This document shows, one piece after another, positions 24,001 to 27,000 of a DNA stretch of 61,742 nucleotides. The first letter of the stretch is position 1. Each line of letters begins with the position of its first letter. Source of the DNA: a virus (lineage: Duplodnaviria > Heunggongvirae > Uroviricota > Caudoviricetes); IMG/VR virus record IMGVR_UViG_646311924_000011. The stretch is one strand, 5' to 3'. A program made the position numbers.

Positions 24001-27000
24001 CCACCCGGGTGGATGGTAAGCCTGTGATTCCTGGCATGAAGCTGTCGAAGGAAAAATGCGACCGGGTTAACGCTATCGAACGGGATAAGGCGCTGGCATG
24101 GGTGGCGAAGAACATCAGAGTGCCACTGACTGAACCCCAGAAAGCGGGTATTGCGTCATTCTGTCCTTACAACATTGGCCCCGGTAAGTGTTTCCCGTCG
24201 ACGTTTTATAAACGAATTAATGCAGGTGATCGAAAAGGTGCCTGCGAAGCGATTCGCTGGTGGATTAAGGACGGTGGCAGAGACTGCCGTATCCGCTCAA
24301 ATAATTGCTACGGTCAGGTATCAAGACGTGACCAGGAGAGTGCGCTGTCATGCTGGGGTATCGACAGGTAAGCAGAATATTTTGCTGAAAAATGACGTTG
24401 GCCAACGCGGGCAGATAACACGAAATCCTGCGAACTGGCAAAATGTAAGTGAATAAAGTCAACAAGATTGTTTCATGAAGAGGCACCGTAATGGTGCCTT
24501 TGTCATTTCTGCGCTTCGCACAAGCGTAAATAAACCAAAGAACCTTTCAGGATGAGCCCTGGTGGATAACCGGCAGTGGTCTGGTTAACCCTCTTTGGGC
24601 TGGTTATTCCTGTGCGCAGGGTTCATCACTAAAAGGAAATAACCGATGAATATGATGACCGTGCCGTTTCACGGCGATTCTCTTTATGTGGTTAACCATA
24701 ACGGCGAACCATACGTTCCCATGAAACCTGTCGTTGCGGGGATGGGGCTGGCCTGGCAATCACAGTTGGCTAAGTTAAGACAGCGTTTTGCGTCAACTAT
24801 AACGGAAATCGTTATGGTTGCTGAGGATGGGAAACGACGCAATATGGTGTCCCTGCCGCTTCGAAAACTTGCAGGCTGGTTACAAACCATCAATCCCAAC
24901 AAAGTAAAACCCGAAATCCGCGGCAAGGTAATCCAGTATCAGGAAGAGTGTGACGATGTTCTCTATGAATACTGGACGAAGGGTTTTGTCGTTAATCCCC
25001 GTCGAATGAGTGTGATGGAAGAACTCAATCAGGCTTGCGCTGACATGAAACGGGATAAAAACATTGCCAGTGTGTTTGCTACCGGGCTGAATGAGTGGAA
25101 ACAGGTTAAATCCGCGCATGTATCAAAAATCCGCACATTGATAAACGAAGCGAATCTGCTGATTGATTTTGTCCTGGCTGATACAGGCAAAGGGAAAATA
25201 ACAAAGGCGGATTGATGGAGTGGTGGCTAATGATATCGGATAAACTCATAACGCTGGCGAAGATCCTCTGTGTAATCGTCGGCATTTCATTTTTAGTCAT
25301 GCTGGTTGCCATTTTCTTTTCCACCGCCTGGCGAGTCCTGACGTTATCGGGACTGGTGGGGTGAAAGAGAGATGAATCGTGTTCTGTGTGTGGTGATTAT
25401 TGTCCTGCTGGTAGCCTGTGGTGCGCTTAGTCTGGGGCTGAATCATTACCGCGATAACGCCATAACCTACAAAGAGCAGCGCGATAAAAAAGTCAGTGAG
25501 CTGGAGCTGGCAAATGCAACCATTACTGATATGCAGCAGCGCCAGCGTGATGTTGCTGCACTTGATGCCAGATACTCGAGGGAATTAGCCGATGCGAGAG
25601 CTGAAAATGAAACTCTTCGCGCTGACGTTGCCGCTGGTTACCGCAGCCTGCGGATCAACGCCACCTGTCCAGGTCCCGTGCGTGAAGCCACCGGCACCGC
25701 CCGCGTGGATAATGCAACCGGCCCCCGACTGGCAGACACCGCTGAACGGGATTATTTCACCCTCAGAGAGAGGCTGATCACTATGCAAAAACAACTGGAA
25801 GGAACCCAGAAGTATATTAATGAGCAGTGCAGATAGAGTTGCCCATATCGATGGGCAACTCATGCAATTATTGTGAGCAATACACCCGCGCTTCCAGCGG
25901 AGTATAAATGCCTAAAGTAATAAAACCGAGCAATCCATTTACGAATGTTTGCTGGGTTTCTGTTTTAACAACATTTTCTGTGCCGCCACAAATTTTGGCT
26001 GCATCGACAGTTTTCTTCTGCCCAATTCCAGAAACGAAGAAATGATGGGTGATGGTTTCCTTTGGTGCTACTGCTGTCTGTTTGTTTTGAACAGTAAACG
26101 TCTGTTGAGCACATCCTGTAATAAGCAGGGCCAGCGCAGTAGCGAGTAGCATTTTTTTCATGGTGTTATTCCCGATGCTTTTTGAAGTTCGCAGAATCGT
26201 ATGTGTAGAAAATTAAACAAACCCTAAACAATGAGTTGAAATTTCATATTGTTAATATTTATTAATGTATGTCAGGTGCGATGAATCGTCATTGTATTCC
26301 CGGATTAACTATGTCCACAGCCCTGACGGGGAACTTCTCTGCGGGAGTGTGCGGGGATAATCAAAAACGATGCACACCGGGTTTTCTCATTTTTCACGAG
26401 ATGGGAGCGATTTCCCGCGAAGCCGCCTGTCCGGTGCGGTGGTGGAAGAAACCGGATAAAACAACCGCATTGTGCAAATATCGATCAAATATGGTGCTGC
26501 TGTGTGAAATCTGAAAAATCACAGCGGTCATTATGCATCAGTTTTTAACACAGGACGTCAGAACGTGACATGGCAAAGCTGGACTGGAAAAAGCTGGAGC
26601 AGGCATTCCGACGCGAACATGCCGAAACGGGAATAACATTACTGGACTGGTGCCGGAAGAAAAAGATTAATTACAACACCGCCAGAACCCGTATAAAAAT
26701 GGGCAAAATCGATCATGAAATTGATCATAAAACCGATCATGAAATCGATCATGACATCTCAGATGAAGAACCCTGCAATGACGCGGGTTCCGGCGATGAA
26801 AAATGCGCAAAAAACTCTGAAAAAAACTGCGCAAATTCGGCAGAAACGAAACGGATTCGTGGTTCCCGACTTTTACCACCTTCAAACGCTTTTTCTCAGC
26901 GAAACACCCACGCCGTAAGACACCGTGGATATGCGAAGTATCTTGAGGCAGATAACCTCATGGATGATGCGTCCGACATGGTGCTGTTCGATGAACTGGT

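Follow-up and report, generated by a model that had tools for sequence, protein, structure and literature searches.

Terminase locus of the window

The window, as the whole stretch of DNA under analysis is called here, is the 61,742-nucleotide Caudoviricetes record IMGVR_UViG_646311924_000011 from IMG/VR, and the subject of this report is an array of four 12-bp units, each bearing a GATC site, within its gene for the small terminase subunit (terS), which is proposed to be the recognition element of a packaging (pac) site. The window is a Shiga toxin (Stx)-converting phage, Stx phage TL-2011c; its terS region is 100 % identical to that of Escherichia phage TL-2011c and 99.8 % identical to those of 933W and VT2-Sakai, and the same array is present in 933W. 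The terS gene (26570..27376, plus strand) encodes a protein of 268 amino acids that is matched over its full length, residues 1-268, by the phrog_370 profile of 933W-type TerS (E 4e-125), and it is annotated as terS in TL-2011c, 933W, VT2-Sakai and others. The gene for the large terminase subunit, terL (27357..29063, plus strand; phrog_2 and phrog_38407), lies directly downstream and overlaps the end of terS, and a portal gene follows it. The repeats thus lie inside terS, as an earlier note on this DNA, made from its sequence alone, had supposed. No Pfam family matched TerS or TerL, a profile search against solved structures gave only a chance hit for TerS (E 0.36), and a scan for promoters and terminators around terS was negative.

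An AlphaFold2 model of TerS, built with 68 homologues, has three parts. The first is an N-terminal domain of three helices (residues 6-20, 24-31 and 35-41; predicted local distance difference test score, pLDDT, 76-88), which is predicted to bind DNA, spans amino acids 1-45 (26570..26704, plus strand) and is homologous to the N-terminus of P1 PacA. Its third helix, codons 35-41 (YNTARTR; 26672..26692, plus strand), is the predicted recognition helix, and the class of this helix covaries with the DNA motif downstream. The second part is a disordered linker, amino acids 46-118 (26705..26923, plus strand; pLDDT <50 for residues 46-109 and 111-118), whose coding sequence holds the motif arrays, and the third consists of long C-terminal helices (residues 130-238). 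When the full model was compared with the PDB by Foldseek, all hits were coiled-coil look-alikes (E >= 0.2), and the DNA-binding domain is therefore described here simply as three helices.

The GATC array

The array occupies 26708..26755 on the plus strand, begins three codons past the predicted DNA-binding domain and codes for the start of the flexible linker. Its GATC sites start at 26711, 26723, 26735 and 26747, and the exact 12-bp spacing reported in the earlier note was confirmed; the repeat unit given there, CGATCATGAAAT, is exact in two of the four copies, and the other two differ from it. Tandem Repeats Finder reported a 12-bp unit in 4.4 copies (26706-26758, 82 % matches, score 78), and the four units conform to A-N-Y-GATCA-N-R-A-N. 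In codon register they read ATC GAT CAT GAA, ATT GAT CAT AAA, ACC GAT CAT GAA and ATC GAT CAT GAC, coding for IDHE, IDHK, TDHE and IDHD, which are TerS residues 47-62 (IDHEIDHKTDHEIDHD). The four YGATCA hexamers (one TGATCA and three CGATCA, at 26710-26752) correspond to terS nucleotides 142-178, so that several hexamers stand in the 5' part of a small-terminase gene, as in P1.

GATC is depleted in the window (151 observed against ~264 expected; observed/expected 0.57), and the terS array is the only spot with four GATC sites within 120 bp. By a Poisson estimate, 0.016 clusters of this kind are expected per window, but this model is not strictly apt for a tandem array, because tandem duplication copies the GATC automatically, and conservation is the better test. 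The nearest GATC sites outside the array are at 26483 and 27656. The former belongs to a solitary CGATCA (26482..26487, plus strand), which is intergenic, 86 bp upstream of terS, and stands in a context, ATCGATCAAATA, similar to the repeat unit; it was considered as a second half-site and rejected, being not conserved in the Salmonella prophages that share the GATCA array. CTAG is rarer still than GATC in the window (12 against 31 expected; observed/expected 0.39), and GATC-free regions have been noted in prophages of Escherichia coli that produces Shiga toxin (PMC6602927).

Two TGCGCA hexamers, at 26804 and 26828 (26804..26833, plus strand; 24 bp apart), lie further along the linker-coding sequence in the Cys-Ala frame (KCAK and NCAN). 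TGCGCA is the main-array motif in most relatives, where it is read in other frames as Ser-Ala-Gln or Val-Arg-Lys, and the two copies in the window may be a relic or may act as a second site of recognition.

Occurrence and copy number

The array segment was found in 385 of 5426 complete E. coli genomes. Among the E. coli records, identity to the four-copy query is >=99 % in 349 of 386 (~90 %) and 90-95 % in 17 of 386, and in the latter band both matches listed are 12 nucleotides shorter. The segment was also found in 222 phage records including that of 933W; of these, 189 reach >=99 % identity to the four-copy query and about 30 lie at 95-99 %, where three copies are seen in most of the records listed. 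Alleles of 1, 2, 3, 5 or 7 copies are rare. The array can vary in length, but four copies are the usual state.

In about 30 Stx2a prophage records (LC7278xx series) the terS match stops right after the GATC array. In LC727844 (locus L004, from 2679 onward, about window position 26760) a foreign element, which begins at the junction of GATCATGACATC and TGAACCGCCCCGGG, truncates terS; its end resembles that of IS629, a provisional assignment. Prophages with terS truncated in this way should, judging by their sequence, be unable to package.

Motif arrays across the TerS family

The 5' regions of terS were compared at 103 loci encoding TerS homologues, with five more obtained by exact look-up, which gave 87 non-redundant loci. 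Across these, one short motif is repeated several times in the slot right after the DNA-binding domain, and its identity follows the sequence of the third helix. Fifty-six loci with the helix xARR[YH][IL]K have 3-8 copies of TGCGCA, eight with SAKRYIT have 4-5 copies of TTCGCA, ten with xAKRYIK have 1-5 copies of TGCGAA, and thirteen with NTART[RQ]IK, comprising the window and a Salmonella lineage, have 3-5 copies of GATCA. A helix-tied array after the DNA-binding domain, a feature defined in the present analysis, is also what the window terS carries. The TGCGCA, TTCGCA and TGCGAA arrays occur in E. coli Stx phages of the GER2 type and in prophages of Citrobacter, Salmonella, Serratia, Yersinia, Pectobacterium, Aeromonas and Klebsiella. 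No prior description of family-wide terS arrays, or of TGCGCA in connection with terminase, was found in the open-access literature searched.

TGCGCA occurs at a mean of 6.1 copies per 210 nucleotides in these arrays, against 0.76 under synonymous-codon resampling (p <= 0.0025 in each of the 56 loci) and a background of 0.09 per 210 nucleotides in the rest of each locus. Its copies are spread over the three reading frames (251/60/31), in which they are read as SAQ, VRK or CA. Selection on TGCGCA, with this excess over synonymous shuffles and this use of all three frames, acts on the DNA and not on the peptide.

Two further groups have unrelated N-terminal domains on the same TerS C-terminal part, and each has an array of its own with inverted copies. 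These are some Salmonella terS genes (locus L115, 2140-2210, MDMEALKSDYCAGV...; locus L116, 2125-2195, MNQSEEESLKRDYCAGV...), in which the C-terminal two-thirds are unchanged and the arrays are of GACGGA/TCCGTC and GGTACG/CGTACC. Between the window and E. coli phage GER2, TerS is 94 % identical over residues 96-268 (173 amino acids), but identity falls to 71 % for the domain and 42 % for the linker (amino acids 46-95); domain and array therefore behave as one exchangeable specificity module.

The GATCA version in two lineages

The Salmonella prophages of the GATCA type have the helix YNTARTQIK and carry GATCA at terS nucleotides 142, 154 and 166 (178, 190), which are the coordinates and the 12-bp period of the window. 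Their repeat peptides differ (SDQK SDHK NDHE SDQK NDHN), and the two lineages are 67 % identical in the domain and 75 % in the DNA coding for it. The five core bases are identical in 20 of 20 comparisons and the non-core positions of the unit in 17 of 28 (Fisher p 0.001); His and Gln are swapped between the lineages while the bases CA stay. Asp in the window terS is GAT in all four repeat units and elsewhere GAT in nine and GAC in thirteen. Repeats of the form D[HQ] were found only with the NTART helix or its T40I variant among 120 listed homologous proteins. In the Salmonella GATCA lineage the TGCGCA array is gone, with 0-1 copy remaining in the linker, and the GATCA array is kept.

The same comparison bears on whether selection acts on the peptide, an Asp/His-rich IDHEIDHKTDHEIDHD serving as a metal-binding or charged spacer, with the DNA repeat as its by-product. 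The His/Asp-rich composition fits such a role, and so does the fact that D[HQ] recurs in the window, in the Salmonella lineage and within the PacA family. It is nonetheless a very improbable explanation: His and Gln replace one another freely and the residues beside them are completely different (I/T against S/N; E/K/D/N) while the DNA core is fixed, the region is predicted to be disordered, and the equivalent D-H codons of P1 are by experiment part of its pac site, where synonymous recoding of the hexamers reduces phage yield about 9-fold (PMC10028697).

Homology with P1 PacA

The small subunit has an N-terminal DNA-binding domain of the PacA type. Aligned with hhalign, the TerS family and the PacA family match over residues 4-48 and 1-45 (Prob 96.5 %, E 7e-10); the window TerS and PacA give reciprocal PHROG cross-hits (E 3e-5 and 2e-4) and a direct BLASTP match (E 0.009). 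PacA homologues down to 28 % identity retain clusters of D-Q/D-H after the domain. The layout of P1 pac was read from NC_005856, in which the TGATCA hexamers lie at pacA codons ~65-80 and 108-116, just past the PacA N-terminal domain, with spacings of 7, 12 and 15 bp in the first group and 12 and 11 bp in the second. They translate as ..IDH.NDQ..GDH.. and ..NDR.DDH.VIT, again a D-H/D-Q reading. P1 pac has seven hexamers with Dam sites, involves IHF/HU and is cleaved in a methylation-dependent manner (PMC10028697).

Proposed function of the array

In the reading proposed here, with a probability of about 0.55, the array is the element that the cognate TerS recognises in a pac site resembling that of P1, and it represents a GATC-bearing form of a design found across the family. 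The anatomy of the locus, the homology to PacA, the family-wide selection at the DNA level and the covariation of helix and motif are demonstrated in this analysis; binding, cutting and any effect of methylation at the array are what we infer. The four YGATCA units, embedded in the linker-coding part of terS, would be sites for the N-terminal helix-turn-helix domain of TerS. If the long C-terminal helices of TerS make it oligomerise, the DNA-binding domains, being on flexible tethers, could engage several hexamers of concatemeric DNA together, and this complex would recruit TerL, which would make the first cut nearby and start headful packaging.

Several results weigh against this proposal. 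The window has no second cluster of hexamers, and its sole match to the IHF consensus WATCAANNNNTTR is at 16981, with none at the array. TerL of the window has no BLASTP similarity to P1 PacB, the two having only a match to the broad phrog_2 in common. Alleles of one or two copies exist (P0020 and P0016), both known from partial proteins on short contigs. For the GATCA array alone, the synonymous-shuffle test was not significant (4.0 observed, 2.3 expected, p ~0.13), and all GATCA copies lie in one frame and one phase, like a plain tandem duplication. The pairing of GATCA with NTART is seen in two lineages only and may have a single origin. Neither virion-end nor binding data for 933W-type phages were found in the open-access literature searched, nor was a mapped pac site, terminus or packaging mode. 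Phage record ends were examined as a proxy for mapped termini, and none was found inside the array; the PV1894xx records, annotated 'circularly permutated', merely end six codons short of the terS stop, at a point ~0.6 kb downstream from the array.

The perfect phase in a single frame and the non-significant codon test are also what a neutral or nearly neutral coding tandem repeat would give, that is, a 12-bp unit expanded by replication slippage and tolerated in the protein, with GATC incidental to Asp-His and the pac signal elsewhere (for example at the two TGCGCA, or outside terS). This is the main rival, possible but well short of probable, and it is consistent as well with a copy number ranging from 1 to 7, with the disordered linker and with the persistence of two TGCGCA copies downstream. 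It does not account for the four-copy allele being held in ~90 % of carriers, or for a GATCA core that is invariant in two lineages whose peptides and non-core bases have diverged. The array fills the slot in which relatives have frame-independent arrays selected as DNA, and it switches with the recognition helix; the Salmonella lineage gave up TGCGCA and not GATCA; and Asp, mostly GAC outside the repeat, is always GAT within it.

Dam methylation and the array

The earlier note had paired the array with a Dam-type methylase of the phage. The enzyme is real: the gene at 15900..16427 (plus strand) encodes a Dam of the PF05869 family (E 6e-65; 218 bits, the curated cut-off being 28) that is 100 % identical to the Dam of VT2-Sakai, M.EcoVT2Dam, whose target is GATC (PMC6602927). 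The pairing is not conserved, and this Dam is a possible, non-obligatory partner of the array. Phage PA8 has an identical array, and a tblastn search of the early half of its 63.6-kb genome, the first 27 kb as far as stx2A, gave no PF05869 homologue; none was found in ~10 kb on each side of the Salmonella GATCA-type arrays, nor in GER2 from 20 to 48.2 kb. With PA8 as counter-example over its first 27 kb, obligate coupling of the array to a phage Dam is not supported.

The 'adenine methyltransferase' of PA8 is an MT-A70 protein, of a family other than PF05869, which is reported to methylate 16S rRNA and to have no GATC activity in vitro (PMC10810198). Identity of the methylase of that paper with the window Dam was considered and rejected, the MT-A70 gene being absent from the window. 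Methylase content varies among close Stx phages: the window has the PF05869 Dam in its nin region, PA8 (locus L114, 2228-2854) has the MT-A70 gene near attL together with a PstI/BsuBI-type restriction-modification pair beside cI, and GER2 also has a PstI/BsuBI-type pair.

Host Dam would be available in all hosts concerned, and a protein reading GATCA in the major groove would be expected to meet methyl groups, because the Dam site lies within the conserved core. Since the Dam-methylated adenine sits in the recognised GATCA core, TerS binding or cutting would be expected to sense the methylation state of the array, and host Dam, or phage Dam where present, could adjust when packaging takes place, as has been demonstrated in P1. 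Methylation gating is by this analogy a reasonable but tentative extension of the proposal, possible but well short of probable. A stronger form, in which packaging of 933W-type phages is epigenetically gated, TerS engages or cuts the GATCA array only in a particular Dam state, SeqA possibly competes on hemimethylated DNA, Dam sets both the start of packaging and the transduction of host DNA, and the domain-array unit is a portable cassette that predicts pac, is speculative and, taken as a whole, doubtful.

SeqA prefers closely spaced hemimethylated GATC sites, and the array could instead serve in Dam/SeqA sensing without being read by TerS, marking freshly replicated DNA or modulating transcription through the region of terS and terL. 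No other GATC cluster exists in this GATC-depleted genome, the spacing is near one helical turn, and the phage carries a GATC-specific Dam. The arrays without GATC at the same place in relatives (TGCGCA, TTCGCA, TGCGAA, GGTACG) and the covariation of the motif with the TerS recognition helix are left unexplained by such an element, which also has no promoter or terminator signal nearby, and it is improbable as the sole function. It is compatible with, and not opposed to, a methylation-gated pac site.

Other features of the window

A Bor-like lipoprotein gene (MKKMLLATALALLITGC...; 25868-26161, minus strand) stands between the lysis genes and terS. Three other repeats were observed. At 12980-13057 there are four tandem copies of a ~19-bp unit (ATCCCTCAAAACGAGGGA), which by their sequence look like replication-origin iterons of the lambda type. 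At 37302-37450 a 45-bp tandem repeat codes for a collagen-like Gly-X-Y run, presumably in a tail-fibre gene, and at 40297-40341 there is a 20-bp direct repeat (ACGGGCGTATTTACTAAACTG x 2.2).

Implications and comparison with known systems

Shiga toxin genes are spread by 933W-type phages, in whose terS the array provides a specific 48-bp candidate pac element. The comparison also offers a rule for candidate pac motifs in a large prophage family, namely a helix-tracking motif right after the TerS DNA-binding domain; if the domain-array unit is indeed a cassette, the pac site could be predicted from sequence alone across enterobacterial and Aeromonas prophages. If the GATC version is sensitive to methylation as in P1, Dam activity would tie host physiology to packaging and transduction, and under epigenetic gating Dam would also set how often host DNA with look-alike sites is packaged and transduced. 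Knowledge of pac is useful for designing or disabling packaging in phage-derived vectors, and the P1 hexamers have already been recoded synonymously to that end (PMC10028697).

Short sites bound by the small terminase subunit occur in several phages. In lambda the R sites of cosB are bound by gpNu1, in SPP1 the pacL and pacR boxes are bound by G1P, and in P22 pac lies inside gene 3. These resemble the array in that several short small-subunit sites, at or in the terminase genes, nucleate the packaging complex; they are not known to be Dam sites, and the likeness drawn here is one of principle rather than of sequence or family. Clusters of GATC bound by SeqA, as at oriC and P1 oriR, likewise have several sites about one helical turn apart, but they are found at replication origins and promoters, whereas the cluster in the window is in a late structural gene whose family has arrays without GATC.

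The closest relatives by gene are the terS loci with TGCGCA, TTCGCA or TGCGAA. They share with the window the gene (phrog_370), the position, a range of 3-8 copies and the tie between helix and motif, and they differ in that their hexamers are others, have no Dam site, occur in all three reading frames and are irregularly spaced (modes 9-10, 12, 14-15 and 18 bp).

P1 pac is the nearest known counterpart. It differs in its layout of 4+3 hexamers flanking a cleavage region of ~90 bp, against a single cluster of four in the window, and in its small subunit, PacA having 397 amino acids and TerS 268 with an unrelated C-terminal part. The likeness to P1 suggested in the earlier note does not extend to the bipartite arrangement or to the IHF site between the two clusters; it holds for the PacA-homologous domain and for hexamers in the equivalent slot. 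In both phages the hexamers follow directly after homologous N-terminal domains in the small-terminase gene and are read as Asp-His/Gln, the GATCA core is common (TGATCA/G in P1), the spacing is ~12 bp and the phage encodes a GATC methylase. As judged from these shared features, the analogy with P1 appears stronger than the author of the earlier note could have known.

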